A stretch of 64,000 nucleotides of DNA from an uncultured Elusimicrobia bacterium (lineage in GTDB: Bacteria > Elusimicrobiota > Elusimicrobia > UBA1565 > UBA9628), in NCBI GenBank assembly GCA_964653765.1, contig CAZZGQ010000001.1, forward strand, positions 5,456 through 69,455, given 5' to 3'. This document shows, in pieces, positions 10,158-40,645 of this stretch (position 1 is its first letter; every line of letters starts with the position of its first letter). Below the pieces are notes generated by a model. The model was not told the DNA's origin and did not search any database. It worked only from the letters and a program-made list of their open reading frames with translations. The position numbers were made by a program, and so were the translations under genes.

Positions 10158-10276
10158 AGGGACGCGAACATCGGTACGATCAAGCGTGCCAGGATGGCGG
10201 CCCGACCACCCAGTTCCTCCGGAAAATGATCCGGACCCTTGCCGACAGGAGATTGGACCATTTCAGCATGGAGTCT

Positions 10277-12109: not shown

Positions 12110-15100
12110 ATGCGCCTAGCGCGAATCGCCGTTCACAACCCATACTGGGTCGTCGTCTTGACGCTCATGACAGCGCTCTTGGGCGGCGTCTGCCTGAGCC
12201 TGCTGCCCAAAGACATACTGCCCACCTTCAAGACCTCGGCCGTTCAGGTTGTCACCTTCTACCCCGGCATGCCGGCCGAGGTCATGGAGAAGGACATCAC
12301 GACAAGGCTCGAGCGCTGGACGGGGCAGTCCAACGGCATCGCCCGCCAAGAATCCAAGTCCATGATCGGCGTCTCGATCGTCAAGGACTTCTTCCGTCCC
12401 GACATCGATCCCAATACGGCGATGTCGCAGGTGACGTCTTTCGCCATGTCGGACCTGTTCTACCTGCCGCCGGGGACCATCCCGCCGATGGTGATGCCGT
12501 TCGATCCGACGGCGGCCGTGCCCTTGGCGCTCATCACGGTGCAAAACCCGCGGATGGACGAATCCAAGCTCTACGACGTGGCCTACTTCGACCTGCGCAA
12601 CATGCTCCAAGGCATCCCCGGCGTCATCGCTCCGGCGGTCTATGGAGGGAAGCTGCGCCGCATCCTGGCCTACGTCGACCCCGCGAAGATGGCCGCGCGC
12701 GACCTCTCGAGCCTGGACGTCGTGCAAGCCCTGCGCCAGTCCAACGTGATGATCCCGACCGGCGACGTCAAGCTCGGCGACAAGGACGTGCAGGTCGTGA
12801 CGGACGCTCTCGTGCCCGACGTCGGGCGCATGAACGACTTCCCGATCCGGGCGCGCGAGGGCGTCGAGGTCAGGATGAAGGACGTGGCGACGGTCGAGGA
12901 CTCGCACCAGATCCAGACCAACATCGTCCGCATCAACGGCAAGCGTCAGGTCTACATCCCGATCTACCGCCAGCCCGGCGCCAACACGATCGCTGTCGTC
13001 GACGGGATCAAGAAGGCGCTCTCGCTGATCCTGGAGCGCCTGCCCCAGGGAATGAAGTTGGACGTCGCCGCCGACCAGTCCGTCTTCGTGAGGCGCGCCG
13101 TCGAGAGCCTGTCGCATGAGCTGGTCCTGGGCGGGCTGCTCGCGGCCTTGATGGTGCTTCTCTTCCTCCGTAGCCTGCGCTCTTCCCTGGCGATCTTCCT
13201 CGCGATGCCGCTCTCGATCTTCGCCTGCTTCATCGGGCTCTACGCCACCGGGGACACGCTCAACGCGATGACCCTAGGCGGACTGGCCCTGGCCGTGGGC
13301 CGACTCATCGACGACTCGATCGTGGTGCTCGAGAACATCACGCGCCACATCGAGTCGGGCTCGACGGCGCGCGAGGCGGCGTTGAGCGCCGCCGATGAGG
13401 TCGCCATGCCCGTGTTGGCCGCGACCATCACGACGCTGATCGTCTTTCTGCCGGTCTTCTTCCTGACGGGGATGGGCAAGTTTCTCTTCGCGCCGCTGGC
13501 CAGGGCGGTGGCCTTCTCGATCGGCGCCTCCTACGTCGTGGCGATGACCGTCGTGCCGGCGTTCTGCGACAAGTTCCTCAAGGCGCGCCCGCCCCGGCGG
13601 ACGGCCAGCTCCGATCGAAGGGTCCTTATCGAGCGAGCTATCCCTGCGGTCGAGCGTTGGCTCGAGCCGGCGGTCCGCTTCGTCAGGAGCTCGTTCGGCG
13701 TTCCCCTCCCCGCGCCGCTGGCCTCGCCCGAGCTCTGCGCGGCCGTCGACAGCGTCGCCATGCTGGCGCCCGAGCCGCGTGAATGGCCCCTCTCGTACGC
13801 GGGCTTTGTCCGCGGCTATCGCCGCCTGCTCGCGCGCTCGCTGCCCCGGCGCGGCTGGATCATCGCCGGGGCGTTTGGCGGGCTGCTGCTGTCGCTTCTC
13901 TTATACCCGCGGATCGGCAAGGAGCTTTTCCCGGCCGCCGACGTCGGCCACCTGACGATCCACGCGCGCATGCCGACGGGGACTCGCATCGAGCTGAGCG
14001 AGGCCAAAGCGGCCCAGATCGAACGCGGTCTCAGGGACGTCCTGGCTTCGGACGACCTCAAGCTCGTGATCGCCAACATCGGCGTCCTCAACGACTGGCC
14101 GGCCGCGTACACTCCCAATTCCGGGCCCGGCGACATGTTCTTCGAGGTGGAGGTGGGCGAAGGCCGGCGCCTTTCTACGCAGAGCTGCGCCGACGCGCTT
14201 CGAGCCTACTTTCGCAAGAGTTTCCCGGACGTCGAGATCAGCATCGAGACGGGCGGCATGCTCACAGCGGCTCTGAACATGGGGCTGGCCGCGCCGATCG
14301 ATATCCAGGTGGAAGGCCAGGACCTCAAGGCCGCCCACGAGATCGCGCGCTCGATCGTCGATCGCGTCAAGGGCGTGCCGGGGGCCGTCGACGTGGGCAT
14401 CCAGGAGAGCGTCGACTACCCGCAGATCGCTATCGAGCTTAACCGCCCGAAGATCGCGCGCCTGGGACTCACCGTCGATGAGGTGGTCAAGAGCGTCGTG
14501 ACGGCGCTCAATTCGAGCGTCAACTTCGCCCCCGCATTCTGGATCGACCCCAAGAACGGCAACCATTACTTCTTGGGTGCCCAATACCGCGAAGATGAGA
14601 TCCGCAGCCTCGACGCGCTCAAGGCGATCGGCGTCACTGGCAGCAACCAGGAGCGAACAGTGAGACTGGGCGAGCTCGCGGACTTTCGGACTACGGTCGC
14701 CCCTTCCGAAATACGCCACCTCGACATCAAGCGCGTGATCGACGTCTTCGCGAACGTGTCCGGGCGCGACGTGGGCGGCGTCGCCTCCGATATCGCGCGG
14801 CGGCTGCCAAAGCCCCAGGAGCTGCCGCAAGGCTATCGCATCAGGATGCGCGGCGAAGTCTCGTCAATGAGAGAGGCTTTCGCCAACCTGGGCTTCGGGC
14901 TGCTGCTGGCCGTCGCTCTCGTCTATCTCGTGCTGGCGGGCCAGTTCCGCTCCTTCTTGGATCCGCTTCTGATCCTGTTCGCCGTGCCGCTGGGCCTGAC
15001 GGGCGTCTTGGCGATGCTTTGGGCCACCCGGACGACTTTCAACATCCAGTCGTTCATGGGCGTCATCTTCATGGTCGGCATCGCCGTCTCGAACGGCATC

Positions 15101-16654
15101 CTGCTTGTGGAGTTCGCCAACCGCGAGCTGGCGCGAGGGAAGAGCCCGGATGAGGCTGTCATCGAGGCGGCGGCCGTCCGCCTGCGCCCGATCCTGATGA
15201 CCTCGCTGGCTACGCTGTTGGGCCTTCTGCCCATGGCCGTCGGTGGCGGCCGCGGCGCGCAGGCGAACGCGCCGCTGGCGCGCGCCGTGATCGGCGGCAT
15301 GATGGCCTCCACCGTCCTCGTGCTGCTGCTCGTGCCGCTGCTCTATAACGGGCTGCAAAGGCTCAAGGGGCCGAGGGGCCGGTCCGCGGCCACCGCAGCA
15401 TTGTTGCTCATCCTATTCGCAGCGCCCAAGGCCTCGGCCGAAACCGCCTCGTGGGCGCTGAGCTACGACGACGCCTTGGCCATGGCGCTCAAGGACAACC
15501 CTGGCCTGCTGGCCGCCGCGGCCAGGGTGGAGCAGGCCCGGGCGGCGGTCGTGGCGGCGCAAGCCTCCTACTACCCGCGGCTTGCCGCCTCGGCGATCGA
15601 CTCGTCAGGCATGGGCGGCTCCTCCTCGGCGCTGGGGATCACTGGTCTGGTCAATTCTCCCTACCGCAAGGGCGAGGCGGCCGGCCTGGACGCGGCGTGG
15701 AACGTCTACGACTTCGGACGCACCGCCTACGGGGCCAAGGCGGCGCGGGAGCAGCTCGAGGCCGCGCGGGCCGACGTCGAGGGCTTGAAGCTCGACGTCC
15801 GCGCCAAGGCGGCCGAGGCTTACTGCCGTTGCGCCGAGCTTCAAGGCCTTGGCGCGCTCTTCGAGCGCCAGGGAAGCGACCAGGCGAAGATCGTGGGCGA
15901 GCTGGAGGTCTACGTGCGCTCGGGTCTGCGCACCCCGGTCGAGCTCGGGCTCATGAAGGCCACGCTGGAGGGCATCGGAGCGCGCCGGCAGGAGGCGCGC
16001 GCGCTCGAGGCCGTGGCGCGCGAGGACCTCGCTGCTGTCATGGGCCATAGCGGGTCCGTTTCCTTCTCCTGCGTCTCGGATACCGCCGCGCCCGTGGTCC
16101 CGGCCATCGACGAGTCCTCCGCCCTGTCGCGCCGGCCCGAGCTCGCCGCCGCCCGGCTGCGGGCCGCCGCCGCGCAGGCGCGCTGGCGGGCGGCGGGCCG
16201 GGAACGCTGGCCCGTGTTGTCGGCCGTGGCGAGCGCCGGCGTTCTCTCCGAGACGAGCCTCGTGCCCAAGCAGGAGTGGAGCGCGGGCGTCGGCCTGCGG
16301 CTGCCGCTCTTCGAGGGCTTGCGCTTGGCGTCCGAGGAGAAGGCGGCGGCGCAAGCCGCGCGAGAATCCGAGTATCGCGTCGCGGTGGAGCAGCAAGCCG
16401 CGACGCGCGACGTCAGAGCAGCGGCGGCCTGGGCCGCCGGCGCGCGCGAGAAGCGGCTGCGGTTGGACGAGGAGGAGCGCACCGTCGAGCAAGCCTACCT
16501 GCTCGCCCGCCGGCGCTACTTGACCAAGGCCGGCAGCTTCGCCGACCTGCGCGACGCTCAAGGGATGTATTTTCGGATCGCCGAGGAGGATTTGGGGGCG
16601 GGCGAGGCCGAGCGGCTCGCTGTCGAGCAGCTCAAGATAGCGGCCGGAATGTAA
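12110..16654 (+). CDS. RND efflux permease (AcrB/HAE-type, ~1085 aa) continuing in frame into a TolC/OMF-like outer-membrane-factor domain (~430 aa)
   Basis: 12-TM RND body. After ...LLYNGLQRLKGPRGRS the frame continues without a stop into a signal-peptide-like segment (AALLLILFAAPKASA/ETAS) and OEP-family repeats. No MFP gene is adjacent. Confidence 0.7.
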   Translation: MRLARIAVHNPYWVVVLTLMTALLGGVCLSLLPKDILPTFKTSAVQVVTFYPGMPAEVMEKDITTRLERWTGQSNGIARQESKSMIGVSIVKDFFRPDIDPNTAMSQVTSFAMSDLFYLPPGTIPPMVMPFDPTAAVPLALITVQNPRMDESKLYDVAYFDLRNMLQGIPGVIAPAVYGGKLRRILAYVDPAKMAARDLSSLDVVQALRQSNVMIPTGDVKLGDKDVQVVTDALVPDVGRMNDFPIRAREGVEVRMKDVATVEDSHQIQTNIVRINGKRQVYIPIYRQPGANTIAVVDGIKKALSLILERLPQGMKLDVAADQSVFVRRAVESLSHELVLGGLLAALMVLLFLRSLRSSLAIFLAMPLSIFACFIGLYATGDTLNAMTLGGLALAVGRLIDDSIVVLENITRHIESGSTAREAALSAADEVAMPVLAATITTLIVFLPVFFLTGMGKFLFAPLARAVAFSIGASYVVAMTVVPAFCDKFLKARPPRRTASSDRRVLIERAIPAVERWLEPAVRFVRSSFGVPLPAPLASPELCAAVDSVAMLAPEPREWPLSYAGFVRGYRRLLARSLPRRGWIIAGAFGGLLLSLLLYPRIGKELFPAADVGHLTIHARMPTGTRIELSEAKAAQIERGLRDVLASDDLKLVIANIGVLNDWPAAYTPNSGPGDMFFEVEVGEGRRLSTQSCADALRAYFRKSFPDVEISIETGGMLTAALNMGLAAPIDIQVEGQDLKAAHEIARSIVDRVKGVPGAVDVGIQESVDYPQIAIELNRPKIARLGLTVDEVVKSVVTALNSSVNFAPAFWIDPKNGNHYFLGAQYREDEIRSLDALKAIGVTGSNQERTVRLGELADFRTTVAPSEIRHLDIKRVIDVFANVSGRDVGGVASDIARRLPKPQELPQGYRIRMRGEVSSMREAFANLGFGLLLAVALVYLVLAGQFRSFLDPLLILFAVPLGLTGVLAMLWATRTTFNIQSFMGVIFMVGIAVSNGILLVEFANRELARGKSPDEAVIEAAAVRLRPILMTSLATLLGLLPMAVGGGRGAQANAPLARAVIGGMMASTVLVLLLVPLLYNGLQRLKGPRGRSAATAALLLILFAAPKASAETASWALSYDDALAMALKDNPGLLAAAARVEQARAAVVAAQASYYPRLAASAIDSSGMGGSSSALGITGLVNSPYRKGEAAGLDAAWNVYDFGRTAYGAKAAREQLEAARADVEGLKLDVRAKAAEAYCRCAELQGLGALFERQGSDQAKIVGELEVYVRSGLRTPVELGLMKATLEGIGARRQEARALEAVAREDLAAVMGHSGSVSFSCVSDTAAPVVPAIDESSALSRRPELAAARLRAAAAQARWRAAGRERWPVLSAVASAGVLSETSLVPKQEWSAGVGLRLPLFEGLRLASEEKAAAQAARESEYRVAVEQQAATRDVRAAAAWAAGAREKRLRLDEEERTVEQAYLLARRRYLTKAGSFADLRDAQGMYFRIAEEDLGAGEAERLAVEQLKIAAGM

Positions 16655-18187: not shown

Positions 18188-18688
18188 ATGTTTCGACAAT
18201 CGCCTGAGGCATTCGAGGAACTGCTGCGCGAGCATCTGGATTTCCTGTATCGCTGCGCCCTGCGGTTGACGCGCCAGCGACTGGAAGCCGAGGATCTCGT
18301 GCAGGAGACGGCTGCCCGCGCCTTGCGCCACTTCGACCGTTATCGGCCGGGGACCAATGCCCGGGCTTGGCTGCTGACGGTCATGAGAAACATCTTCATC
18401 AACGGATACCGCCGGAAAGCCAAGGAGCGCGAGCTCATGCGGTCCATCGAGGCGGACGCGCGCGTGGTGAGAAAGACGACCGAGCTGCCGGAGCGCGTCG
18501 AAAGGACGCTCGACGCCCTTCCGGAGGAGCAGCGTCTGGCCTTGAGCCTCTTTTACGCGGAGGGCTTCTCCTACGCGGAGATCGCGCGCGCCATGGAGTG
18601 CCCCATCGGCACGGTGATGTCGCGACTCCATGCCGGGAGAAAGAAGCTGCTGGAACAGTCGCGGGATCTCAAGAACGATGAACTGTAA
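18188..18688 (+). CDS. ECF-subfamily RNA polymerase sigma-70 factor
   Basis: Region 2 (DLVQETAARALRHFDRY) and region 4 (EGFSYAEIARAMECPIGTVMSRLHAGRKKL). Confidence 0.85.
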   Translation: MFRQSPEAFEELLREHLDFLYRCALRLTRQRLEAEDLVQETAARALRHFDRYRPGTNARAWLLTVMRNIFINGYRRKAKERELMRSIEADARVVRKTTELPERVERTLDALPEEQRLALSLFYAEGFSYAEIARAMECPIGTVMSRLHAGRKKLLEQSRDLKNDEL

Positions 18689-19443: not shown

Positions 19444-20316
19444 ATGAGCAGGGTGCTTTCGTGGCTCATCGCGGGGCGCTCGCAGAAGGCCAGCCACGCT
19501 CTTTTGGCGCCCGCCGCGTTATGGCTGCTTCTCTTTCTGGTGCTGCCGGTGGCGTTTTTGCTCACCATGTCGGCGGCGCAGAGGGGCGCCTACGGCGCGG
19601 TAATCTGGCACTTCACGACAGCCAACTTCGCCCGCGCTCTCCAGCCCAAGTATCTGCCCATCCTGGTCCGGACGATCGGCTACGCCTCGGCGACGACAGC
19701 GCTCTGTCTTACGCTAGGCTTTCCAGTCGCCTACTACCTGAGCTTCCACGCCGGCGACAAGCGCGAGTTGCTGCTGGCGGCATTGATGATCCCGTTTTGG
19801 ACCTCGGCACTGGTCGCGTTGTATTCGTGGATGATCATCCTCGGCCGGGAGGGGCTGCTCAACTCGATGCTCATGCGCGCGGGAGTCCTTCGCTCGCCTT
19901 TGCATATCCTCAACACGCCGTTCTCCGTGCTGCTGGGCATGGTCTACTTCTATATCCCTTTCATGGTGTTGCCGCTCTTCGGCTCGCTTGAGAAAATCCC
20001 GCGCCAATATCTCGAGGCGAGCTACGATCTCGGAGCGGGTCAAACGCGCACCTTCCTGAAGGTGACGCTGCCGCTTTCGTTGCCGGGCGTGTTCGCCGGC
20101 TGCATCCTCACGTTCGTGCCCTGCATGGGAGACTTCTTGACCGCCGATTTTCTCGGCGGACCGAGGACCTACCTGCTCGGGAACCTGATACAAAACCAGT
20201 TCTTGATGGCGCAGGACTGGCCGTTCGGCGCCGCGCTGACCTCGCTGCTTCTTTTTACCCTGGTCACCGGGCTCTATCTGTACCAGCGCGTCGAGAGGCG
20301 GGAGGAGCTCCTATGA
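19444..20316 (+). CDS. ABC transporter permease (PotB/BPD_transp_1 family), orphan
   Basis: 6 TM. EAA-like loop ([20 protein letters not shown]). No ATPase or SBP gene adjacent. Confidence 0.7.
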
Positions 20317-22508
20317 AAGCTGTCCTGGCGGTTTCGGTCTTCCTCGTCGCGGCTTTCGGTCAAGCCGGCGAGACGGGAAAGCCCAACCACCTCATCCACG
20401 AGAAGAGCCCCTACCTGCTGCAGCACGCCTACAACCCGGTGGACTGGTATCCCTGGGGTGACGAAGCCTTCGCGAAGGCCCGGCGCGAGAACAAGCCGAT
20501 CTTCCTGTCCATCGGCTACGCCACCTGCCATTGGTGCCACGTCATGGAGCGCGAGAGCTACTCCGACCCCAAGATCGCCGCCATCATGAACAAGTATTTC
20601 GTGTCGGTGAAGGTCGACCGCGAGGAGCGGCCGGACGTCGACAACCTTTACATGACGTTGGCCCAGGCCGCCGGATGGGGCGGCGGCTGGCCGCTCAACC
20701 TTTGGCTCACCCCCAGCCTCAAGCCCTTTTACGGCGGAACGTACTTTCCGCCCGAGAGCCGCTGGGGCCGGCCGGGTCTAGCCGAGACCGCCGAGCATAT
20801 AGGGCAGCTCTGGAAGACGCGCGGCGCCGAGATCGTGGCGTCGGGCGACGACCTCGTCGAGAAGGTCTCCGGCTACATGGCCGTCCAAGGACGCAGCGGC
20901 CCGCTCGACGCCGCCGCATTGGACAACGGCTTTAGGTCGCTCGAGAAAAACTTCGACCCGTCGCGGGGCGGCTTCGGCGGCGCGCCCAAGTTCCCGATGC
21001 CGATCCAATATAACTTCCTGCTGCGCTACTACGCCCGCACGGGCAACAAGAAGGCTCTCGACATGACCGCGCGCACGCTGCGGCAAATGGCGGCTGGCGG
21101 CCTCTACGATCAGGTCGGCGGTGGCTTTCACCGCTACTCCACCGACGACCATTGGCACATCCCGCACTTCGAGAAGATGCTCTACGACAACGCGCAGTTG
21201 GCGGTCAACTATCTGGAGGCCTATCAGCTCACCAAGGACCCGGACTTCGCGCGCGTGGCGCGCGAGACGCTCGACTACGTGCTGCGCGACATGACGCACC
21301 CGGACGGCGGCTTCTTCTCGGCGGAGGACGCCGACAGCCTCCGTCCCGGCGCCGAGGAGAAGGGCGAGGGCGCCTTCTACGTCTGGGAGAAGCCGGAGAT
21401 CCTCAAGCTCGCCGGAGCCGAGGCCGGCGAGATCTTCAGCTACCGCTACGGCGTCAAGGAGCACGGCAACGCCGAGTCCGATCCCCAAGGCGAGTTCCGC
21501 GAGAAGAACATCCTCTACGTCGCCCATTCCATCCCCGAGACGGCCAAGAGGTTCCACCGGACGCCGGCGGAGATTGAAAGTGTGTTAAGGGAGACCAAAA
21601 GCACGCTGTTCGAGGCGCGCGCCCGGCGTCCGCGCCCGCAGCGCGACGACAAGGTCCTGGCGGCCTGGAACGGCCTGATGATCTCCGCTCTGGCCAAGGG
21701 CAGCCAGGTTCTGGATGAGGCGCGGTACCGGCAGGCCGCGGAGAAGGCGGCGCGCTTTGTCCGCGAGCGGCTCTACGACGCCCAGAGCCGCCGGCTCTAC
21801 CGGCGCTGGCGCGACGGAGAGCGCAAGGTGCCGGGCAACGCTGATGACTACGCCTTCCTCGCGCAGGGGCTCATCGACCTCTACGAAGCTTCGTTCGATC
21901 CGCAATGGCTCCAATGGGCCCTCGAATTGACCGAGACGCAGGACCAGCTCTTCTACGACGCCAAGGACGGGGGCTTCTACTCCACGACTCAGGGCCAGGA
22001 CAAGAACCTGTTGGTCCGCAGCAAACAGGATTCGGACAACGTCGAGCCTTCCGCCAACTCAGTGGCCGCGCTGAACCTGCTCCGTTTGGCGCAGTTCACT
22101 GATCGCAAGGAGCTGCGCGCCATGGCCGAGAAGACGCTGACGCTCTTCGGCAAGCAGATGAAGGAGCAGCCCCAATCGCTCTTGCAGATGCTGGTCGCCT
22201 TGGATTTCGACCTCGCCAAGCCCCGGCAGATCGTGATCGCGGGCGATCCGCAGGCAGCCGACACGCGGAGGATGCTGCGGCTCGTCCAATCGCGCTTCAT
22301 CCCGGTCAAGATCTTGATGCTAGCCGACGGCGGCAAGGACCAGGCGGCGCTGACGCGGTGGCTGCCGTTCATGAATGGCGTCTCGCGCCTCAAGGGCAAG
22401 GCGACCGCCTACGTCTGCGTGGACTACGCTTGTAATCTGCCCACCAGCGATCCGGGCACGCTGGACAAGATTTTGGAGTCGAAGCCGCCTGTAACAAAAT
22501 CCCGCTAA
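20313..22508 (+). CDS. Thioredoxin-domain protein of the DUF255/YyaL (SSP411-like) family, secreted
   Basis: Signal peptide. [15 protein letters not shown] thioredoxin-like motif. Long alpha/alpha toroid C-terminal region (N-acyl-glucosamine-epimerase-like). Confidence 0.8.
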
Positions 22509-22578
22509 GACGGACCTATTTCGCACCTGATGGGTGAGGCGGAAGAATAGCGAGACATGCAAGGGAGGACGCAAGCGA

Positions 22579-22854
22579 ATGGAAAAACGAAGCATGCTGG
22601 TCAAGGCAGCCGTCGCCGGATTGATGGGCGCGGCGGTGGCGGCCACGCCGAGCTTCGCCAAGGACGCGAAGGCGAAGAAGAAGACGAAGGACGAGAACGT
22701 GAAGTGTTACGGGGTCAATTCGTGCGCCGGCCACGGCAAGGACAAGAACTCTTGCAAGGGTCTGGGCTGGCTGCCGATGCCGAAGGACTCCTGCCTGAAC
22801 ATCGAAGGCGGCTCTCTTGAGCCGAAGGCCGCCGCTCCAATGGAGAAGAAGTAG
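22579..22854 (+). CDS. Cys-rich secreted RiPP precursor of the DUF2282/bufferin (BufA) type
   Basis: RBS GGGAGG. Sec signal peptide. Core VKCYGVNSCAGHGKDKNSCKGLGWLPMPKDSC has 5 Cys with KCYG/SCAG/SCKG spacing. Immediately upstream of the DUF692 and DUF2063 genes. Confidence 0.6.
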   Translation: MEKRSMLVKAAVAGLMGAAVAATPSFAKDAKAKKKTKDENVKCYGVNSCAGHGKDKNSCKGLGWLPMPKDSCLNIEGGSLEPKAAAPMEKK

Positions 22855-22866
22855 CCGCGCGAGCGC

Positions 22867-23724
22867 ATGGCTCGTAAGGACTCCATCATGACGGCGGCAC
22901 GGGGCGTGGGGCTTGGCCTGCGTCCGGTCCACTACGAGCACGCGCTCAAAGGCCGCCCCGCGGTCCCTTGGTTCGAGGTGATCTCCGAGAACTACATGGG
23001 GCTGCGGGGCGGCTCGGGCGGGCGTCCGCTCGAGGTCCTGCTCGAGGTTCGGCGGGACTATCCGATTTCCCTTCACGGCGTGTCGATGAATCTGGGCTCG
23101 GCCGATCCGCTGGATCGCGCCTATTTGAACGGGCTCAAGGACTTGATCGCCAAGATCGAGCCGGCGCGCGTCTCGGATCACCTGTGCTGGACGGGCGTGA
23201 GAGGCCGGAACACGCACGATCTGCTGCCCTTGCCCTACGACGAGGCGACCGCGCGTCACGTCGCCTCCCGCGTCCGGCAGGCGCAGGATGTACTCGGCCG
23301 CCGGCTCTTGGTCGAGAACGTCTCGAGCTACCTATCCTACTCCCATTCGAAGATGGAGGAGTGGGAATTCCTGGCCGAAGTCGCCGAGCGCGCCGACTGC
23401 GGCATCCTGCTCGACGTCAACAACATCCACGTCAGCGCGACCAACCACGGATTCGACGCTCAGGACTACCTGGCCGGCATCCCGGCGTCGCGGGTGAGCG
23501 AGATTCATCTCGCGGGCTATTCTTCGCACGACGGCTTTCTGATCGACACGCACGACCACCCCGTCTCCGATCCCGTCTGGTCGCTTTACGCCGAGGCTGT
23601 CCGACGTTTTGGAGCCATCCCTGCTCTCATCGAGTGGGATGAAAAGATACCGGCCTTCGCGCGCTTGGAGCGCGAGGCCGCGCGCGCCCAGGAGGTGCAG
23701 GATGCCGTCCTCGCCGTCGCCTGA
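22867..23724 (+). CDS. DUF692 / MNIO (MbnB-like multinuclear non-heme iron oxidase) RiPP-modifying enzyme (BufB-like)
   Basis: GVGLGLRPVHYE..PWFEVISENYM..VSDHLCW..LLVENVSSY..LLDVNNIHVSATNHGFD..IHLAGY..GFLIDTHDHPV..LIEWDEK, collinear with MbnB-family TIM barrels. Confidence 0.8.
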   Translation: MARKDSIMTAARGVGLGLRPVHYEHALKGRPAVPWFEVISENYMGLRGGSGGRPLEVLLEVRRDYPISLHGVSMNLGSADPLDRAYLNGLKDLIAKIEPARVSDHLCWTGVRGRNTHDLLPLPYDEATARHVASRVRQAQDVLGRRLLVENVSSYLSYSHSKMEEWEFLAEVAERADCGILLDVNNIHVSATNHGFDAQDYLAGIPASRVSEIHLAGYSSHDGFLIDTHDHPVSDPVWSLYAEAVRRFGAIPALIEWDEKIPAFARLEREAARAQEVQDAVLAVA

Positions 23725-24514
23725 GCTGAGAACGCTGCAAAGGACGCTCTACGATGTCCTCACGGACCCGCGTGGCGCGCGCGCCGGCGTCGCCGCGCGC
23801 CCTCAGGCGCTCGCCTGGATACAGGAGGCGCCGCCTCTCGATCGGCCGACGCGCCTGAGCGTTTACGGCGACGGGTATTTTCTGCGGCTGCTGGATTGCT
23901 TGTCGGCTGACTATCCGGCCCTTCGCCGAGCCCTTGGGGAGCGGGATTTCCGAGCGCTTGCCGCCGAGTACGGGACGCGGCATCCGCCGGCCTCCTCATC
24001 GCTGGCGGACTTCGGGGACAGCTTGCCGGCGTTCTTGACGGGGCACCGCTTCTCGCGCCGATGGCCCTTCCTCGCTGATCTCGCGCGGCTCGAGCGCGCC
24101 GTGCTCGTAGCGCTGCTCACGGACAGGCTCCCCCCGCTTGATCCGAGCGTGGTAGCGCGACTGCGGCCTGAGGCCTGGGGGCGGTCGCGCCTCGTTTTTG
24201 ATCCAACCGCGCGCTTGCTTCGGTCGAAGTGGCCGCTGGCGAGACTGTGGCGCTCGCGCGACAAGCCCGCAGACGCTCCTGGATGGCGCCTGCGCCGCGA
24301 ACGCGTCGGGCGCCTGCTCGTCTGGCGCGCCCCGAGCTGGGTCCGAGTGAGGGAACTGCCCTACGCGGAGGGCGTCCTTCTGGAGCGAGCCCTCGCGGGA
24401 TATTCCCTCGCCGCCATCGTGTCGGCCGAGCCATCGACGCGACCCGCCGCCGTGCGCCGCTGGTTCTCACGCTGGATGCGAGACGGCTTGATCAAGGGGA
24501 TCGCCCCGGCCTAA
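23702..24514 (+). CDS. DUF2063-family partner protein (BufC-like) of MNIO enzymes
   Basis: Start MPSSPSPELRTLQRTLYDVLTDP overlaps the DUF692 gene end by 23 nt. The DUF2063 N-terminal LQxxFxxxLxDP pattern is present. Confidence 0.65.
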   Translation: MPSSPSPELRTLQRTLYDVLTDPRGARAGVAARPQALAWIQEAPPLDRPTRLSVYGDGYFLRLLDCLSADYPALRRALGERDFRALAAEYGTRHPPASSSLADFGDSLPAFLTGHRFSRRWPFLADLARLERAVLVALLTDRLPPLDPSVVARLRPEAWGRSRLVFDPTARLLRSKWPLARLWRSRDKPADAPGWRLRRERVGRLLVWRAPSWVRVRELPYAEGVLLERALAGYSLAAIVSAEPSTRPAAVRRWFSRWMRDGLIKGIAPA

Positions 24515-29099: not shown

Positions 29100-30509
29100 T
29101 TACTCCACGCAGCAGCTCATGTGGCGCACGTCGCGCTTAAAGGCTTGCGCGGCGATCTTGACGACCTCGGAGTAGGTCGGAAAAACGTGGACCAGGTCGA
29201 TGAGGTCGGAGGCCTTGAGGCCGTGCTGGATGGCGAGGGCCGGCTCATGGATGAGCTCGGCGGCGTTGGGCGAGATGACGTGAAAGCCCAGGACCTTGCC
29301 GTCCTTGGGATGGATCACCATCTTCGCGTAGCCGCGCAGCTCGTTGGTGATAGCGGCCTTGGACACGTACTTGAGCTCGACGCCGCGGCAGTCGCAAGCG
29401 CCGAAGCGCTCGATCGCCTGGGCCTCCGTGAGTCCGACCACGGCGATCTGCGGATCGGTGAAGACGGCGGCCGGCACGGCCTCGTAGTTGATCGTGAGCT
29501 TCTGGCCGCCCAACGCGTTCTTGACGGCGTTGGCGCCCTCGCGCGCGCCGACGGTCTCGAGCCACGGCGGCCCGGCCACGTCTCCGGCCGCGTAGACGTT
29601 GCCCGCGCGGGTGCGCAGGGTCTCGTCGACCTCGACGAAGCCGTTCTTGTCCGCCTTGAGGCCCACGGAGGACAGGTTCAGGTCCTCGGAGTTTCCTTTG
29701 ACCCCGACGGCGACAAACAGCTTCTCGGCGCGGAACTCGCGCGGCTTGCCGTCCACCTCCCCGGCCAAGACGACCTCCCGCCCTTCCTGACGGACGGCCT
29801 TGGGGGTCATCTTGGCGCACAGCTCGATGCCGTCTTCCTTAAAGACGTCCTCGATCACGCGCGAGACCTCTGGCTCGGTGAGCGAAAACGGCCGGTCGAG
29901 AGCCTCGACGCAGGCGATCTTCGTGCCGAAGCGGGCGAACATCTGGGCGACCTCGAGGCCGGTCGGCCCGGCGCCGATAACGATCATGCTCTTCGGCATT
30001 TCCCTCAAATCGAAGGCCGCGATGTTGTCGAGCACCGAGCCGGGCGCCAACGTCTCCAGCCCGGGCAGGAGCAACGGCTTGTTCGAGGAACCCGTGGCGA
30101 GGAGCACGTATTCGGCCTCGAAGAGCCGGTTGTCCGCCCGGATCCGCCCGGGGCCGTCCAGGCGCGCTCTCTTCTCGACGAGCTCTACGTGCTTGAAGCC
30201 GCGCATGATCTTCTCGTATTTGGCCTCGCGGCTAGCGTGGACGATCTCTTCCTTTTCGGCGATAGCCTCGGGAAACGAGAACTCCGGTGCCCGGCACTTG
30301 ATGGCCCGGAAGCGCGGCTTGAGGACGCGCCGGCGGTCAAAGCCCGCCTCCAGCAGGACTTTGCTCGGCACGCAGCCCACGTTGACGCAGGTCCCGCCCA
30401 GCGGCAGGCCTTTGTTGAAGACGACGGTCTTCGAGCCAAGCTCGTCGGCCGCCGCGGCGGCCGCGAACGCCGCGCCCCCTCCCCCGATGATGGCCAAGTC
30501 GTAGCTCAA
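29100..30509 (-). CDS. merA: Mercuric reductase MerA (core enzyme without N-terminal HMA domain)
   Basis: TTG start 5 nt after GAGGAGGGA. FAD site LGGTCVNVGCVPSK. C-terminal Cys pair ...RHMSCCVE. Start overlaps the stop of the upstream small mer transport gene. Confidence 0.8.
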   Translation of the reverse strand: MSYDLAIIGGGGAAFAAAAAADELGSKTVVFNKGLPLGGTCVNVGCVPSKVLLEAGFDRRRVLKPRFRAIKCRAPEFSFPEAIAEKEEIVHASREAKYEKIMRGFKHVELVEKRARLDGPGRIRADNRLFEAEYVLLATGSSNKPLLLPGLETLAPGSVLDNIAAFDLREMPKSMIVIGAGPTGLEVAQMFARFGTKIACVEALDRPFSLTEPEVSRVIEDVFKEDGIELCAKMTPKAVRQEGREVVLAGEVDGKPREFRAEKLFVAVGVKGNSEDLNLSSVGLKADKNGFVEVDETLRTRAGNVYAAGDVAGPPWLETVGAREGANAVKNALGGQKLTINYEAVPAAVFTDPQIAVVGLTEAQAIERFGACDCRGVELKYVSKAAITNELRGYAKMVIHPKDGKVLGFHVISPNAAELIHEPALAIQHGLKASDLIDLVHVFPTYSEVVKIAAQAFKRDVRHMSCCVE

Positions 30510-30709
30510 GGCTCCCTCCTCGTCCAGAGCCAAAACGCCAGGATCACGAGCCCGAACAGAACGGCGCCGATCCACCAGCGTCCGCTGGCCAATCCCGCCG
30601 CTCCTCCCGCGAGCAGCGCGGGAAAGAAGGCGCAGCAGATGACGCCCACAATGGCGATCACACCCGCCGCGATCGCGGCGAAAACGCCCAGCTTGCGCCC
30701 ATCGGCCAT
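30506..30709 (-). CDS. Small two-TM mercury-transport-like protein (MerF/MerT-like CC motif)
   Basis: 67 aa. TM1 IVGVICCAFFPALL (vicinal Cys + Pro) then a second TM. RBS CAGGAGGA. Divergent from merR. Confidence 0.5.
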   Translation of the reverse strand: MADGRKLGVFAAIAAGVIAIVGVICCAFFPALLAGGAAGLASGRWWIGAVLFGLVILAFWLWTRREP

Positions 30710-30809
30710 GAGTCCTCCTGTAGCGCCAGTTTATAGCCTGTACCACGGTCCAAGGTCGGTAGCGGACGAGTCTCCCCTCCGTCACGTCCTCGCGACGGGC
30801 GCAAAGGTC

Positions 30810-30842
30810 TTGACTCTATACCTGGGTATAGGCTGTAACATG
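30810..30842 (+). promoter_or_regulatory. MerR-type promoter: TTGACT - 19-bp spacer containing dyad CTATACC-tg-GGTATAG - GTAACA, ending at the merR start
   Basis: Seen in sequence. A 19-bp spacer with a centred dyad is the hallmark of MerR-family-regulated promoters. Confidence 0.55.
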
Positions 30843-31259
30843 AGGATGAACATGAACGAGAGTGTGACGATCGGAAGCGTGGCAAAGGCGGCGGGCGTGA
30901 ACATACAAACGGTGCGCTATTACGAGCGCCGGCGCCTGCTCGAGCCGGCGAGGCGCCTTGATTCCGGCTATCGCCTCTATTCCGGAGAGGCGGTGCGAAA
31001 GCTGCGCTTCATCAAGAACGCGCAGGCGCTGGGATTTTCTCTCGAGGAGATCCGCTCGCTGCTGCGGCTGCGCAGCGGCGGCCCGGCGTCGTGCGAGCGG
31101 GTCCGGCGCAGGGCGGCCAAGCATGCGGCGGACGTGCGCGAACGCATCGCGCGTCTGCGCGGCATGGAGCGGGTGCTCCGGCAGTTGATTCGGACCTGCC
31201 AGACGCGCGGCCGGACGGACGAGTGCCCGATCCTGAAGAGTCTCGAGGGAGAGAAATGA
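30840..31259 (+). CDS. merR: MerR-family Hg(II)-responsive transcriptional regulator
   Basis: TIGSVAKAAGVNIQTVRYYERRRLLEP HTH. Cys residues at MerR-like positions (CERV, CQTRGRTDECP). Three possible ATGs at 30840, 30846 and 30852. Confidence 0.85.
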   Translation: MRMNMNESVTIGSVAKAAGVNIQTVRYYERRRLLEPARRLDSGYRLYSGEAVRKLRFIKNAQALGFSLEEIRSLLRLRSGGPASCERVRRRAAKHAADVRERIARLRGMERVLRQLIRTCQTRGRTDECPILKSLEGEK

Positions 31260-31858
31260 ACAAGAACAGAATCCTCGGCCTATCCGCGGTGCTGTCCGCG
31301 GGGTTAGCCTCCATATGCTGCGTCGGGCCGCTGCTGGTCACGGCGCTGGGCTTAGGCAGCCTGCGTCTGGCGGCGGGTCTAGCCCGGTACCGGAGCTATT
31401 TCCTGGCGCTGACCGGCGCGATCTTGGCGGCGGGCTTTTACTTCGCCTATCGCAAACGTCCGGTGCAATGCGCGGATGGAAGCTGCCGGGTAGCCTCGGC
31501 GAGCCGCGTGGCGAAGGCGGGCCTGTGGCTGGCGACAGCCTTGGCCGCCGCCGTCGCGACGTTCCCGAACTGGTCGGCCCTCGCGCTGAGGAAAAGCGGG
31601 CCGGTGATCCCGGCGGGCGCTCAGGTCCTGACGCTCAATGTCTCCGGAATGGACTGCGCCGCTTGCGCCCCGGGCATCGAGAAGTCGGTCGAGAGAGTTC
31701 CAGGCGTGCTCTCGGCGCGCGTGGATTTCGAGCACGCCCGGGCAACGGTCGTCACCGACGGCAAGGCCGATCCCCGAGCGGTCGTCGCGTCGGTCAAATC
31801 GGCGGGTTATCAGGCGACCGTCGTCGGACTGGGTGCAAATGGAAAACCCCGCTCTTGA
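31256..31858 (+). CDS. merT: MerT-MerP fusion (mercuric transport protein with C-terminal HMA domain)
   Basis: ATGA overlap with the merR stop. TM1 SICCVGPLLVTALG (MerT). C-terminal GMDCAACAPGIEKSVERVPGV (GMxCxxC HMA). Confidence 0.8.
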   Translation: MNKNRILGLSAVLSAGLASICCVGPLLVTALGLGSLRLAAGLARYRSYFLALTGAILAAGFYFAYRKRPVQCADGSCRVASASRVAKAGLWLATALAAAVATFPNWSALALRKSGPVIPAGAQVLTLNVSGMDCAACAPGIEKSVERVPGVLSARVDFEHARATVVTDGKADPRAVVASVKSAGYQATVVGLGANGKPRS

Positions 31859-32333
31859 CCACGAGGCGTGTTGCAAGACCGTCGGCGGGGCTTGCCGGGC
31901 GCAGACCGGAATAGACACCTGCCCCCGTTGCGGGAAACAGGGCCGCAAGGTCGGCGGCGTCACTTTGGATCACCATCTGTCCCCTGCCGCGCGAGCCCGC
32001 TTCGGGCAACTCGCTGGATTCTGTCCAAATCCCAAATGCGCGGTCGTCTACTTCGACGGTAAGGCTGTCGCCTTGAGAGGCGAGACCGTGCTGCCCGTCA
32101 CCCAGAAGGACTCCAGCGACGACGTCCACGTCTGCTACTGCTTCAACTTCAAGCGTTCGGATATCCGGCGCGACCTCGTCCAGAAGGGAAGCACCGACAT
32201 CCCGCAGCAGGTCAAGAAAGGCATCGCCGAGGGCCGCTGCGACTGCGAGCGCAAGAATCCCCAGGGGGCCTGCTGCCTCGGGAACATCGCCGCGGCCGTC
32301 AAGGCCATTCAAGCGGAGGCACGCCGAAAATGA
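31839..32333 (+). CDS. Cys-rich metal-binding protein: N-terminal zinc-ribbon-like CxxC...CxxxxC plus C-terminal BFD-like [2Fe-2S]-type Cys motif
   Basis: 14 Cys in 164 aa: CCKTVGGAC, CPRCGKQG, FCPNPKC, VCYCFNFKRSDIRRDL...RCDCERKNPQGACCLGN. Overlaps the merTP 3' end by 20 nt. Confidence 0.5.
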   Translation: MENPALDHEACCKTVGGACRAQTGIDTCPRCGKQGRKVGGVTLDHHLSPAARARFGQLAGFCPNPKCAVVYFDGKAVALRGETVLPVTQKDSSDDVHVCYCFNFKRSDIRRDLVQKGSTDIPQQVKKGIAEGRCDCERKNPQGACCLGNIAAAVKAIQAEARRK

Positions 32334-33021: not shown

Positions 33022-33696
33022 ATGAAGATACAGTTGCTTTGTTTCGAAGGCTGCCCGAACATGGAGACAGCCCGCGCGAATCTGCGGGCGGCATTGGCGA
33101 GAGTTGGACTCGCCGCGCGCTGGGAGGAGGTCGACCTGCGCTCGGCCGGCTGTCCGGCACGATTGCGGGGATTCCCCTCCCCCACCGTGCTCGTTGACGG
33201 CGCAGATGTCTTCACCGGCGCGAAAGAGCAGCCGGGTCAGAGCGCGTGCCGCTTCGGGGGAGCGCCGGGCGTCGGGCCGATCGCGGCGGCGCTCAAGGCC
33301 CGTTCTTGGTCCTCGATGCTCGCCCCGCTTCCGGCCGCGCTGGCCGGTCTTCTGCCCGCCACGTTCTGCCCCGCCTGCTATCCGGCTCTGGGCGGACTGC
33401 TCGGCGCGATCGGGTTAGGCGCCTATGCCGAGCGGCTGCTCGCGCCGCTGACTCTCGTCCTGCTCGCCGCGGCGTTGGTCGGCCTCGGGTTTGAAGGACG
33501 GCGCGGCGGCGACTATCGCCCTCTGGCGCTCGGCGGGTTTGGCGCGGCAGCCATGTACGCGGGCCAGTTCCTGATCGCGTCGGCGCTCGTCAAGTTCGCC
33601 GGCATCGCGGTGCTTTTGGCGGCGTCGTTCTGGAACGTTTTCCCGCGCCTCAAGCGAAGCCGCGACAGCTGCCCCGCTTGCGCGGAAGGGAGGTGA
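33022..33696 (+). CDS. merC: Thioredoxin-like domain fused to MerC-type mercury transporter
   Basis: N-terminus LLCFEGCPN...PTVLVDGADV (Trx-like). C-terminus TFCPACYPALGGLLGAIGLGAY matches MerC MGCAACFPALASFGAAIGLGFL. A second CPAC lies near the C-terminus. Confidence 0.6.
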   Translation: MKIQLLCFEGCPNMETARANLRAALARVGLAARWEEVDLRSAGCPARLRGFPSPTVLVDGADVFTGAKEQPGQSACRFGGAPGVGPIAAALKARSWSSMLAPLPAALAGLLPATFCPACYPALGGLLGAIGLGAYAERLLAPLTLVLLAAALVGLGFEGRRGGDYRPLALGGFGAAAMYAGQFLIASALVKFAGIAVLLAASFWNVFPRLKRSRDSCPACAEGR

Positions 33697-33700
33697 CGCG

Positions 33701-33976
33701 ATGGCGAAGCGAACGGTGGAAGTGTTCACGGCCGGCTGTCCCGTGTGTGAGGACGCCGTCAAAAAGGTCAACTCGCTCGCGTGCCCGGACTGCGAGGTCA
33801 AGATATACGACCTCAACCGGGGTTGCGCGACCAACGAGTGCCGCGAGAGGGGCGAGAAGTACGGCGTCAAGCGCCTTCCGGCGGTGGCGGTCGACGGCAA
33901 GCTGCTCGACTGCTGCAGCCAGGGTGGCGTGGACGTCAAGAAGCTGCAGGCGGCCGGCGTGGGCAGGAGGGCGTGA
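33701..33976 (+). CDS. Small thioredoxin/glutaredoxin-like protein (CPVC active site, additional CC pair)
   Basis: [18 protein letters not shown]...[16 protein letters not shown], Thioredoxin_3-like. Confidence 0.5.
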
Positions 33977-34053
33977 AGCGCGGCCCGGCGAAAGCCGGGC
34001 CGCCGAATTGTGACGAGGCCGGCACGCGTTCGCCGTCGCCGCGCTCTGGGGAA

Positions 34054-36351
34054 ATGACTTCAATGGGCGGAGTGATTGGACAATTGGCCAAGGACCCCGT
34101 GTGCGGGATGAACGTTGATCCGAAGACGACACCCTATCGGCTCGCGCACGGCGGCTCCGATTGCTACTTCTGCGGGAAGCGCTGTCTGGAACGCTTCCAA
34201 GCGGCTCCGGAGCGGTTCCTAACTGCACGCCCGGCAGAGCCACGAGTGGGCGGCGAATACACGTGCCCGATGCATCCCGAGGTCCGTCAGCAAGGCCCCG
34301 GCGCCTGCTCGCTTTGCGGCATGGCCCTCGAACCGCTCGAAGTCTCGGTCGAGGAGCCGGAGAACGCCGAACTGGCCGACATGCGCCGGCGCTTCTTCGT
34401 CAGCGCCGCTCTCACGGTGCCGCTCGTCGGGCTCGCCATGGCGGACATGGCGACGCGCTTGCCGCTTTCGGCGCGGCCGCGCTCGATCATAGAGCTGGCG
34501 CTCGCGTCTCCGGTGGTGCTCTGGGGCGGAAAGCCCTTCTTCGAGCGCGGCTGGGCATCCGTCGTCACCCGTCATCTCAACATGTTCACGCTGATCGCGA
34601 TGGGCACCGCCGCCGCCTACCTGTTCAGCCTGGGAGCCGTCATCGCGCCGAGCCTGTTTCCCCCCTCCTTCCGCACGGCCGAAGGCCAGGTGCCGGTCTA
34701 CTTCGAGGCCGCAGCCGTCATCACGACGCTCGTGCTCTTGGGCCAGGTCCTCGAGATCAAGGCGCGCAGCAGGACGACGAGCGCCATCCGCTCGCTGCTT
34801 GGCATGGCGCCGAAGACGGCGCGCCTGGTCGAGGCCCAGGGCGAGCGCAACGTGCCGCTCGCCGAGGTCGTCAAGGGCCAGACGCTGCGGGTTCGGCCGG
34901 GTGAGCGCGTCCCGGTCGACGGCTGCATCATCGAAGGGCGCAGCTCCATCGACGAGTCGATGATCACGGGCGAGCCGATACCAGCCGAGCACGGCCAAGG
35001 AGAGCAGGTCAAGGCTGGGACGATCAACGGGACGGGGAGCTTCCTCATGCGCGCCGAGAACGTGGGCAGCGAGACGCTGCTCGCCCACATCGTGCGAATG
35101 GTGGGCGAAGCGCAGCGCTCCCGCGCACCGATCCAGAGGCTAGCCGACGTCGCGGCGTCGTACTTCGTGCCGGCGGTGGTCGCTGTGGCCGCTGCCGCTT
35201 TCATCGGCTGGACGCTCTTCGGCCCCGCGCCCAAGGCGCTTCACGGCCTGGTCTCGGCCGTCGCCGTCCTTCTCATCGCCTGCCCGTGCGCGCTAGGATT
35301 GGCCACGCCCATGTCCATCATGGTCGGCACGGGCCTTGGAGCCACGCGAGGCATCCTCATCAAGGACGCCGAAGCCCTCGAGACCTTCGGCCGCATCGAC
35401 ACGCTCGTCATCGACAAGACCGGAACGCTGACCGAAGGCAAGCCCCGGCTGACCGCCGTATCCCCGATCTCGCCGTTCACCGACGACGAGGCCCTGCGCG
35501 CGGCGGCAAGCCTCGAGCGTTACAGCGAGCATCCCCTCGGCCAAGCGATTGCTGCGGAAGCCGAGCGGCGAAAGCTCAGGCCGGGCTCCGTTGAAGGCTT
35601 CGAGTCCCGAACGGGCCTGGGCATCACCGGCCGTCTCGACGGTCGGCGCGTCGCGGTCGGAAGCCCGGCGCTCATGCGCGAGCTCCGAGTGGACGACCGC
35701 GCGATGGCCGACGCGGCGGCCAAGCTGCGGGCCGAAGGCCAGACCGCGCTTTTCGTCGCCGTGGACGGACAGCCCGCCGGCGTGCTCGGCGTCTCCGACC
35801 CTGTCAAGGAGAGCAGCGCGGAGGCGATCGCCGCTCTGCACCGCGAGGGCGTCCGCGTCATCATGATGACCGGCGATCATCCCGCGAGCGCCGAAGCGGT
35901 GGCCAAGCGCCTCGGCATCGACGACGTGCATGCCGAGGTGCTGCCGCAGGACAAGGCGCGCGTCGTCCAAGAGCTTCAGCGCCAGGGCCGCAAGGTCGCC
36001 ATGGCCGGCGACGGGATCAACGACGCGCCCGCGCTCTCCCAGGCCGACGTGGGCGTCGCCATGGGTACGGGCACCGATGTGGCCATCGAGAGCGCGGGGA
36101 TCACGCTCGTCAAAGGCGACCTGCGGGCGCTGTCGCGCGCGCGCCGGCTTAGCCGCGCGACGCTCAGAAACATCAAGCAGAACCTGTTCTTGGCCTTCGT
36201 CTACAACGGCCTCGGCATCCCCATCGCGGCGGGGGCGCTTTATCCGGTCTTCGGTATCCTGCTCAGCCCAATGATCGCGGCCGCGGCCATGACCTTCAGT
36301 TCCTTGTCTGTCGTGGGAAACGCTCTCAGGCTGCGGAGGCTCGCCCTATAG
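34054..36351 (+). CDS. P1B-type heavy-metal-translocating ATPase with N-terminal YHS/TRASH-like Cys domains (CPC transmembrane motif)
   Basis: DPVCGMNVD...YFCGKRC, CPMHPE, CSLCGM. TM6 [29 protein letters not shown]. 765 aa. Confidence 0.9.
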
Positions 36352-40575: not shown

Positions 40576-40645
40576 ATCGACCAGGGCCCTTCGAGGCGAC
40601 TCGGAGGGCCCGCGCCGGGTCAGGCCCGGAATCAAAACACATGGA
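40565..40645 (+). repeat. ~75-bp structured repeat (copy 2)
   Basis: See 40195-40275. Confidence 0.6.

Follow-up and report, generated by a model that had tools for sequence, protein, structure and literature searches.

A probable Buf2-type bufferin cluster with a four-cysteine precursor in an uncultured Elusimicrobia bacterium

The window analysed here is a 64,000-nucleotide stretch of DNA from an uncultured Elusimicrobia bacterium (assembly GCA_964653765.1, contig CAZZGQ010000001.1, positions 5,456 to 69,455 of the forward strand), and positions 22579-24514 within it are occupied by three + strand genes, bufA, bufB and bufC, in that order. Bufferins (captophorins) form the largest group known among RiPPs (peptides made on the ribosome and modified after translation) produced by multinuclear non-haem iron oxidases (MNIOs), and represent a recently recognized bacterial route to copper tolerance. 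A first-pass annotation of the window had proposed a bufferin-type RiPP cluster at this position, consisting of a precursor, an MNIO and a DUF2063 partner, and this proposal is borne out. The identities and order of the genes, the catalytic motifs of the oxidase, the RiPP recognition element (RRE) fold of BufC, the family of the precursor, and a deletion in the precursor together with its conservation are established here, and the locus is very probably a functional Buf2-type cluster operating by a two-heterocycle mechanism that we propose below. As judged by alignment, its real departure from the family as described is the loss of the inner cysteine pair, CysIII and CysIV, from a six-cysteine core. 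The locus had been called a variant bufferin system, and a variant it is, although the reasons given at the time are ordinary features and the lost pair was overlooked.

The bufA gene (22579-22854, +) starts with ATG and encodes a 91-residue bufferin precursor in a four-Cys, short-loop form of the Buf2 family. A ribosome-binding site, AGGGAGGA, can be read at 22562-22569 (+), 9 nt 5' of the ATG at 22579, and GGGAGGA occupies the equivalent position in a sister locus, L092. Inspection and a hydropathy profile indicate a Sec-type signal peptide at residues 1-27 (22579-22659, +), composed of MEKRS, an 18-residue hydrophobic core and PSFA, with cleavage predicted between Ala27 and K28; the segment is conserved in the precursor alignment, and residues 4-21 are helical in the AlphaFold2 (AF2) prediction. 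Neither a lipobox Cys nor a twin-Arg was found on inspection of the N terminus, and export by the twin-arginine translocation (Tat) route, considered on account of a weak TIGR02811 match, was rejected for want of the twin-arginine. Cleavage as predicted would leave a core peptide of 64 residues (22660-22851, +; 6.83 kDa, pI 9.3).

The precursor contains four Cys residues, all invariant in the alignment of homologues: Cys43 (CysI; codon at 22705-07), Cys49 (CysII; 22723-25), Cys59, which corresponds to CysV (22753-55), and Cys72, which corresponds to CysVI (22792-94), all on the + strand. The first-pass annotation counted five, of which the fifth is present solely in an improbable GTG-extended open reading frame (ORF) that begins at 22534, 5' of the real start. 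It also regarded the Lys-rich segment between signal peptide and core as unusual, whereas such a linker is common to the subfamily, relatives having 3-7 Lys/Arg at the equivalent place. Public gene calls on contigs carrying identical proteins give lengths of 91, 278 and 270 residues, matching bufA, bufB and bufC.

The bufB gene (22888-23724, +) encodes an MNIO of 278 residues; there is an alternative ATG at 22867, and the start at 22888 is most likely the correct one, in agreement with the public gene call. BufB matches Pfam MbnB_TglH_ChrH (PF05114; E=1.9e-107, 358.8 bits) and passes the NCBIfam MNIO_BufB equivalog (377.7 bits, cut-off 310), so that the earlier DUF692/MNIO assignment holds and the enzyme falls within the bufferin family; it scores under the cut-offs of the HvfB (243.8 against 360 bits), MbnB (67.4 against 325 bits), ApyH and ChrH models. 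The motifs HG, DH, VEN, DVNN, EIHLAG, DTH and E-x-D are all present, and are invariant in 73-75 homologues from related loci. Among the invariant positions are the Asn, Asp and His equivalent to the site-3 residues mutated in HvfB, and the Asp that aligns with the FonB catalytic base. The remaining invariant motif positions are presumed iron ligands, in view of known MbnB structures and of their invariance. The nearest solved structure is PDB 3BWW (E=4.7e-40), described as a di-iron HvfB homologue (preprint 10.64898/2026.07.17.739211). Gadgil et al. (PMC13097082) place a selectivity residue directly after the catalytic Asp, which is Phe in the 'Lys-Cys' enzymes acting on EGKCG repeats and Asp in the 'Cys-Lys' enzymes of Buf2. 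In the window protein this residue is Glu, and in most of 75 homologues it is Asp, Glu or Ala, with Gly, Ser or Thr in a few and Phe in none; the non-Phe, acidic residue would mark BufB as an MNIO of the Cys-Lys (Buf2) type.

The start of bufC (23702-24514, +) overlaps the bufB stop by 23 nt and is preceded by a ribosome-binding site, AGGAGG, at 23690-95 (+). Its 270-residue product is a DUF2063 and RRE partner of PME type 1; the DUF2063 assignment of the first-pass annotation stands (Pfam, 70.4 bits against a threshold of 27.2), the score against the HvfC model (40.8 bits) is below the cut-off of 142, and a length of 270 residues is in line with that of PME type 1 partners, about 260 residues (PMC12452194). 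A PDB sequence search with BufC gave no match. The AF2 model of BufC is a confident one (54-sequence alignment; predicted local distance difference test score, pLDDT, 94.7), a fold search with it returned matches to NGO1945 and TglI, and on this model both domains expected of a partner protein, an N-terminal DUF2063 domain and a C-terminal domain of RRE fold, are present.

Comparisons of gene content were made by tblastn of the window proteins against 80 related loci, each from a GTDB species representative. Genes for BufB and BufC adjoin bufA nearly everywhere in this set, with the order bufA-bufB-bufC and close or overlapping junctions in about 65 of the 80 and with bufB-bufC ahead of the matched bufA in about nine more. 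In L095 (714-1855), L033, L049, L052, L058, L070 and other relatives a Buf2-type precursor follows bufC instead of preceding bufB (in L095 it is the ten-Cys protein P0029, encoded directly after an HvfC_N gene), and several Vicinamibacteria/Acidobacteriota loci have the matched bufA downstream of bufB and bufC; an A-B-C order is therefore not strictly kept in this precursor family. Across the window, no credible second bufferin, MNIO or partner gene was found. The only additional match, at 41115-41168, is spurious and lies inside a ParB-like ORF.

The first-pass annotation assigned the precursor to DUF2282, the Buf1 family, and profile searches do not support this. The score against Pfam DUF2282 (PF10048) is 13.9 bits (E=0.055) and fails the threshold of 22.4, and the best curated match is NCBIfam BufA2 (NF050166; 42 bits, E=7.8e-11), itself below a cut-off of 60. 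At E<=0.001, out of 5.8 billion searched, 29 proteins are related to the precursor; the named members are from metagenome-assembled genomes (MAGs) of Elusimicrobiota, and the best non-self matches are six-Cys proteins of 60-70% identity. All 29 match BufA2, and seven of ten scored singly pass its cut-off (62-74 bits), each of the seven being a six-Cys protein; the atypical P0027 (47.9 bits) and the expanded P0029 (49.6 bits) fall below it. The consensus core of the relatives, KCYGVNKCxGHGKCGGxGHECAGKNSCKGQGWLxMPKDSCLxIEGGSL, has six Cys, and within this family the alignment identifies only the window protein and P0002, the sister-lineage precursor encoded at L092, as lacking a 9-10-residue block (CGGPGHECA) that bears CysIII and CysIV. 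The opposite change is seen in P0029, in which the same loop is enlarged and the Cys total is ten. The shortfall of the window protein against BufA2 matches the missing loop.

It might nonetheless be supposed that this is a Buf1-type cluster whose only change is the loss of DoxX. Four is the number of Cys residues in Buf1, a precomputed table of a public collection records a PF10048 match to the precursor, graded 'weak', and hhalign gives a 97% probability of homology between the family profile and a genuine Buf1 from locus L068. The same hhalign comparison, however, pairs CysII and CysIII of Buf1, its modified pair, with CysIII and CysIV of Buf2. The Cys residues of the window protein are thus not the Buf1 four, because the Buf1 pair aligns with the very segment deleted here, and the window protein therefore retains the Buf2-specific outer pair, CysII and CysV; the Cys-spacing comparison recommended in the first-pass annotation gives a Buf1-like count but the positions of a Buf2 peptide without CysIII and CysIV. 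Together with the DUF2282 failure, the uniform BufA2 matches among relatives and the acidic residue in BufB typical of Cys-Lys MNIOs, this makes a Buf1 origin extremely unlikely. By its sequence, the precursor descends from the Buf2 (BUF_6/12Cys, 'Cys-Lys') family and is no member of DUF2282/Buf1.

An assembly artefact was considered as the source of the deletion and rejected: at least six independent sequencing runs have yielded contigs with the identical precursor, and the diverged sister lineage has the same architecture, with a precursor 78% identical to that of the window, the same loop absent and the same yyaL-bufA-bufB-bufC layout. Codon differences between the window and the sister lineage, counted as synonymous/non-synonymous, number 23/18 in bufA and 80/61 in bufB, and this synonymous excess in both genes argues for purifying selection. 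These data also bear on the suggestion that the precursor is decaying, having lost essential Cys residues in the deletion, so that no working metallophore is made any longer. Its sub-threshold BufA2 score and the loss of the Cys pair shared with Buf1 are what such decay could produce, and the proteobacterial MAG that encodes another four-Cys precursor (L050) also has a frameshift-like, three-Cys copy (L051/P0052). Against this, the reading frame, ribosome-binding site, signal peptide and remaining motifs are intact, as are the catalytic motifs of BufB and the fold of BufC; the short form is common to a lineage 22% diverged in protein, with the synonymous excess noted above, and independent four-Cys short-loop forms exist elsewhere. 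We consider decay highly unlikely.

The distribution of these forms was assessed among bufA-like ORFs in the 80 related loci and in the window's own clade. Eighty such ORFs have six Cys and seven have twelve; short-loop four-Cys members are confined to the window clade and one proteobacterial MAG (L050), the remaining four-Cys ORFs being Buf1 copies of the canonical kind and, in L079, a second copy that is divergent. A phmmer scan of 1.84 billion representatives returned 77 matches, tallied by regular expression as 53 six-Cys and nine four-Cys proteins, and seven of the nine share the short-loop pattern of the window protein. Several independent losses of the loop are suggested, since the nearest neighbours outside the clade of most four-Cys proteins have six Cys. 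Antoine et al. (PMC12452194) give six Cys in 90% of Buf2 precursors and twelve in the rest, and four-Cys derivatives are not described in the text consulted. The main text of this 2025 landscape survey is silent on Elusimicrobiota, the sole match to Elusimicrobiota bufferins in its text and supplements being a row for Elusimicrobium minutum, with zero counts, in a table of complete genomes; an association of bufferins with DUF255 or MerA was likewise not found in its text and supplements (PMC12452194).

For the chemistry, export route, disulfide and metal binding of the product we infer from the systems of Caulobacter, Haemophilus and Fontimonas. In Caulobacter Buf2 the first and last Cys are unmodified and probably form a disulfide, and all four central Cys carry a loss of 4 Da; for Buf1, both BufB and BufC are required, the signal peptide is dispensable for modification, and the product binds one Cu via 2N2S, its Kd towards Cu(II) being ~6e-15 M and towards Cu(I) ~7e-20 M (PMC11626156). 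The bufferin modification has been assigned as 5-thiooxazole (PMC13097082; 10.64898/2025.12.15.693703). By analogy, bufA would be translated to the 91-residue precursor with its Sec signal peptide, on which a cytoplasmic BufB-BufC complex would act with O2, BufB as the iron-dependent oxidase and BufC supplying the RRE recognition domain. Cys49 (in NSCAG) and Cys59 (in NSCKG) would each undergo a four-electron oxidation to a 5-thiooxazole, with a loss of 4 Da, before export by Sec and cleavage after Ala27; a Cys43-Cys72 disulfide would then staple a beta-hairpin to a short helix. The resulting 64-residue periplasmic product could bind thiophilic metals through the N and S of its two heterocycles and so buffer metal stress, with copper as the default candidate ligand and Hg(II) possible given the nearby mer genes. 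The secondary structure in the AF2 model of the precursor (29-sequence alignment), which was used for this consistency check alone, comprises a hairpin (residues 41-50/58-67) and a helix (residues 69-74) and is consistent with the published bufferin fold; at a pLDDT of 57.8 the model is of low confidence and is not strong evidence.

Several considerations weigh against the cluster being a functional one that works in this way. The precursor falls short of both the BufA2 and the DUF2282 thresholds, its AF2 model has the low confidence just mentioned, and the Cys pair it lacks is exactly that which aligns with the modified residues of Buf1. Only homology to Caulobacter Buf2 suggests that CysII and CysV, the two residues kept, are substrates and can form a competent metal site. 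MNIOs, moreover, need O2. Finally, housekeeping-like genes (MTAP, glycosyltransferases and an amidase) lie between bufABC and the mer, cop and czc genes. A functional Buf2-type cluster nevertheless remains very much the favoured interpretation.

A more far-reaching proposal is that the four-Cys 'mini-Buf2' is a distinct metallophore design and no mere shortened Buf2, in which a thiooxazole pair on the outer CysII and CysV, with no counterpart in Buf1, would create a metal site whose geometry and selectivity differ (Hg(II) or Cu(I) in linear or low coordination, for example), serviced in this clade by a co-transcribed YyaL protein in place of DoxX. We think this unlikely; if true, repeated selection for an alternative site would explain why several phyla have independently lost the inner loop.

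The YyaL protein is the nearest of four upstream neighbours pointed out in the first-pass annotation, all of which are present (Pfam/NCBIfam): a gene for an extracytoplasmic function (ECF) sigma factor (18188-18688, +); one for a ZAS-type (zf-HC2) anti-sigma factor with a probable start at 18678 (the ORF opens at 18630) and an end at 19430 (+), the protein carrying a zinc motif of the form H-x3-C-x2-C, a single membrane segment and a domain at its C terminus; one for a lone PotB-like ABC permease (19444-20316, +); and yyaL itself (20313-22508, +), encoding a YyaL/DUF255 thioredoxin-fold protein (Pfam Thioredox_DsbH, 245.9 bits) with a CHWC motif and a signal-like N terminus. The end of yyaL is 70 nt from bufA, and the two genes may be co-transcribed; the same junction, with a gap of 37 nt, is found at L092, where YyaL is 78% identical to that of the window.

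One could go further and envisage a larger unit, in which the sigma/anti-sigma pair controls a seven-gene operon and YyaL, as a periplasmic CXXC protein, carries out disulfide formation or thiol maintenance instead of DoxX. Between 18188 and 24514 all genes run in one direction, with junctions that overlap or leave gaps of <=70 nt, so that read-through into bufA is possible, and no convincing terminator lies between them; the CHWC motif and N terminus of YyaL and its adjacency to bufA in the sister four-Cys lineage are in keeping with such a role, and in Caulobacter the ECF sigma factor SigF controls the buf operons (PMC11626156). Co-direction is, however, weak evidence for a single unit, because the same-strand array continues upstream to ~12110 and probably to 3488; at its other end it stops with bufC, since the next gene is the convergent MTAP. 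Conservation also speaks against the proposal. Near bufA in the 80 related loci there is no anti-sigma homologue, the permease has a single distant match (26%, L023), sigma factor matches are weak and sporadic (12 loci, 24-43%), and YyaL occurs only in L055, 4.4 kb upstream of bufA. YyaL is itself very widespread, with at least 8000 strong matches, and its three closest orthologues on long contigs (L096-L098, 67-71% identity) do not have bufABC downstream; in L096 the sigma-to-permease block is absent too, because YyaL directly follows a fusion gene described below. The anti-sigma factor is of the ZAS type and not the NrsF type reported for buf clusters (PMC12452194). Matches to promoter and terminator consensus sequences between 18 and 25 kb were about as frequent as in shuffled sequence, and comparison by eye revealed no common ECF-type motif upstream of the sigma gene and bufA. 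Regulation of bufABC by the sigma/anti-sigma pair is thus unsupported, neither being a conserved neighbour of bufA, and the YyaL-bufABC linkage is, as far as these comparisons indicate, confined to a small four-Cys clade; the larger unit as a whole we regard as doubtful.

The absence of DoxX had also been taken as a sign of an unusual system. No DoxX match was found among ORFs scanned at 17.1-26.7 kb, the part of the window covered by that scan, nor beside bufC in the Pfam-annotated relative loci L007-L011. The absence itself therefore stands, but it is not unusual, as Caulobacter buf2ABC also lacks DoxX (PMC11626156).

Upstream of the sigma factor gene, an uninterrupted ORF of 1514 residues (12110-16654, +) encodes a complete resistance-nodulation-division (RND) permease (ACR_tran, to approximately residue 1082) fused in frame to an outer-membrane factor (OEP) domain (1119-1488). 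The same RND-OEP fusion is called as a single gene of 1456 residues in L096 (1634-6004), a related metagenome contig, where it lies immediately upstream of yyaL. It is unusual for an inner-membrane pump to be fused to its outer-membrane channel.

This fusion is the second RND system of the window; the first (3488-8837) consists of a CusA/CzcA-family RND protein (5769-8837; 753.6 bits, cut-off 701.45) with an adaptor and an outer-membrane protein. Downstream of bufABC are genes for MerA (29100-30785, -; 465.5 bits, cut-off 454.45), a divergent MerR-like protein (30801-31259) whose score falls short of the MerR cut-off and is much the same against the CadR, CueR and ZntR models, an Fe-S metallochaperone resembling the CopZ N terminus (31638-32333), a DF-family (seleno)protein domain joined to a weak MerC-like region (33022-33696), and a CopA-type P1B ATPase (33781-36351). 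The RND pump, MerA/MerR and the CopA-type ATPase are all within ~5-17 kb of bufABC. The first-pass annotation placed the cluster inside a metal-resistance region; the czc, mer and second RND genes are real features of the wider neighbourhood, but they are not contiguous with bufABC.

This setting raises the question of whether Hg(II), or thiophilic metals broadly, might serve as the physiological ligand in place of copper. MerA and the MerR-like gene are 4.6-6.7 kb downstream of bufABC, the linkage recurs in other Elusimicrobia, where bufABC follows merR-merT-merA in L009-L011, mer matches lie at the same offsets in L027 and L028, and merR and merA are 1.7 kb upstream of bufABC in L019, and MerC-bufferin fusions have been reported (PMC12452194). 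The bufferins characterised so far are, on the other hand, copper-selective and copper-induced (PMC11626156), the CopA-type ATPase, the CopZ-like protein and the CusA/CzcA RND are equally near, and most related loci outside Elusimicrobia are without mer genes. We view a ligand other than copper as a possibility to be held only tentatively. A MerR-like gene and/or MerA is found <=8 kb from bufABC in five of 14 species-level Elusimicrobia loci, a MerR-like gene also being nearby in L021 and L025, and among the related loci the bufABC-mer linkage was not seen outside the Elusimicrobia phylum. In L009 (7044-12010) merR, a merT-HMA fusion, merA, a 92-residue ORF and a six-Cys bufABC lie on one strand; gene calls for L009 and L010 show this mer-bufABC order, and L011 has extra ORFs between merA and bufA. 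Elusimicrobia contigs of the L009 type also carry, convergent downstream of bufABC, an ECF sigma gene, a small ORF and an AhpC/redoxin gene.

Elsewhere in the window, Rfam identifies a 2'-dG-II purine riboswitch aptamer at 56564-56635 (+; 74.4 bits, gathering threshold 60, E=2.6e-17) and an nhaA-I RNA at 10192-10238 (-; 42.8 bits, gathering threshold 37). A 509-residue ParB/Srx-like protein is encoded at 40641-42170 (+) in a stretch of strong AT skew (0.24 at 40-42 kb), with a second ECF sigma gene (42789-43292, +) ~0.6 kb downstream; the ParB/Srx-like gene, the skew and the second sigma gene may mark a mobile or plasmid-derived segment. A 493-residue protein encoded at 661-2142 (-) combines an MtrA-like domain (tetrahydromethanopterin S-methyltransferase subunit A) with a pterin-binding DUF4346 domain.

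As its machinery is canonical, the locus adds little to the general picture of bufferin synthesis. Its precursor is nevertheless a natural minimal Buf2 scaffold in which only two of four modifiable Cys survive, neither of them from the pair common to Buf1, and it lends itself to asking cleanly which heterocycles metal binding requires and what determines stoichiometry and selectivity. The repeated placement of bufABC behind merR-merT-merA in Elusimicrobiota is also a testable lead that some bufferins handle mercury.

Among known systems, the closest parallel is buf2ABC of Caulobacter vibrioides (CCNA_02999-03001), with which the window cluster shares the A-B-C order, the lack of DoxX, a Sec signal peptide on the precursor, the core motifs KCYGVN...SCKGQG[WF]...C..[IL].GG, an MNIO that passes the BufB model and in which the catalytic Asp is followed by a residue that is not aromatic (in the window, it is acidic), and a DUF2063 and RRE partner. 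It differs in having four Cys rather than six, the CysIII/CysIV loop (~9-10 residues) being missing, so that two heterocycles are expected in place of the four in the buf2ABC product; in a precursor that scores below the BufA2 cut-off (42 against 60 bits); in its host, which belongs to Elusimicrobiota rather than Pseudomonadota; and in its surroundings, with YyaL upstream, mer, cop and czc genes nearby and no SigF/NrsF. The Buf1 bufABCD clusters (the gig operons of Cupriavidus, Caulobacter and Bordetella) have precursors of a homologous fold family (hhalign, 97%) and the same MNIO and DUF2063 machinery, and in them as here four Cys would comprise an outer disulfide pair and two central residues expected as thiooxazoles. 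The window precursor differs from theirs in failing the DUF2282 threshold and in the positions of its central Cys, and the cluster has neither DoxX (BufD), which is frequent but not universal in Buf1 clusters, nor an anti-sigma factor of the NrsF type.

The clusters for the HvfABC oxazolin of Haemophilus influenzae, gonophorin and fontiphorin likewise have an MNIO paired with a DUF2063/RRE protein, which in those systems places 5-thiooxazoles on the Cys residues of a secreted copper-binding peptide, as the genes present suggest for the window. Unlike these 'Lys-Cys' captophorins, the window precursor is without EGKCG repeats; BufB and BufC are under the HvfB and HvfC model cut-offs, and BufB has Glu for Phe250 and Pro for Arg16 of FonB. 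Methanobactin MbnABC is more distant (MbnB model, 67.4 against 325 bits), its chemistry being of the oxazolone-thioamide type and its precursor having a leader peptide and no Sec signal, but it exemplifies the same principle that we propose for the window cluster, in which an MNIO and its partner act on the Cys residues of a ribosomal peptide to yield a copper chelator.

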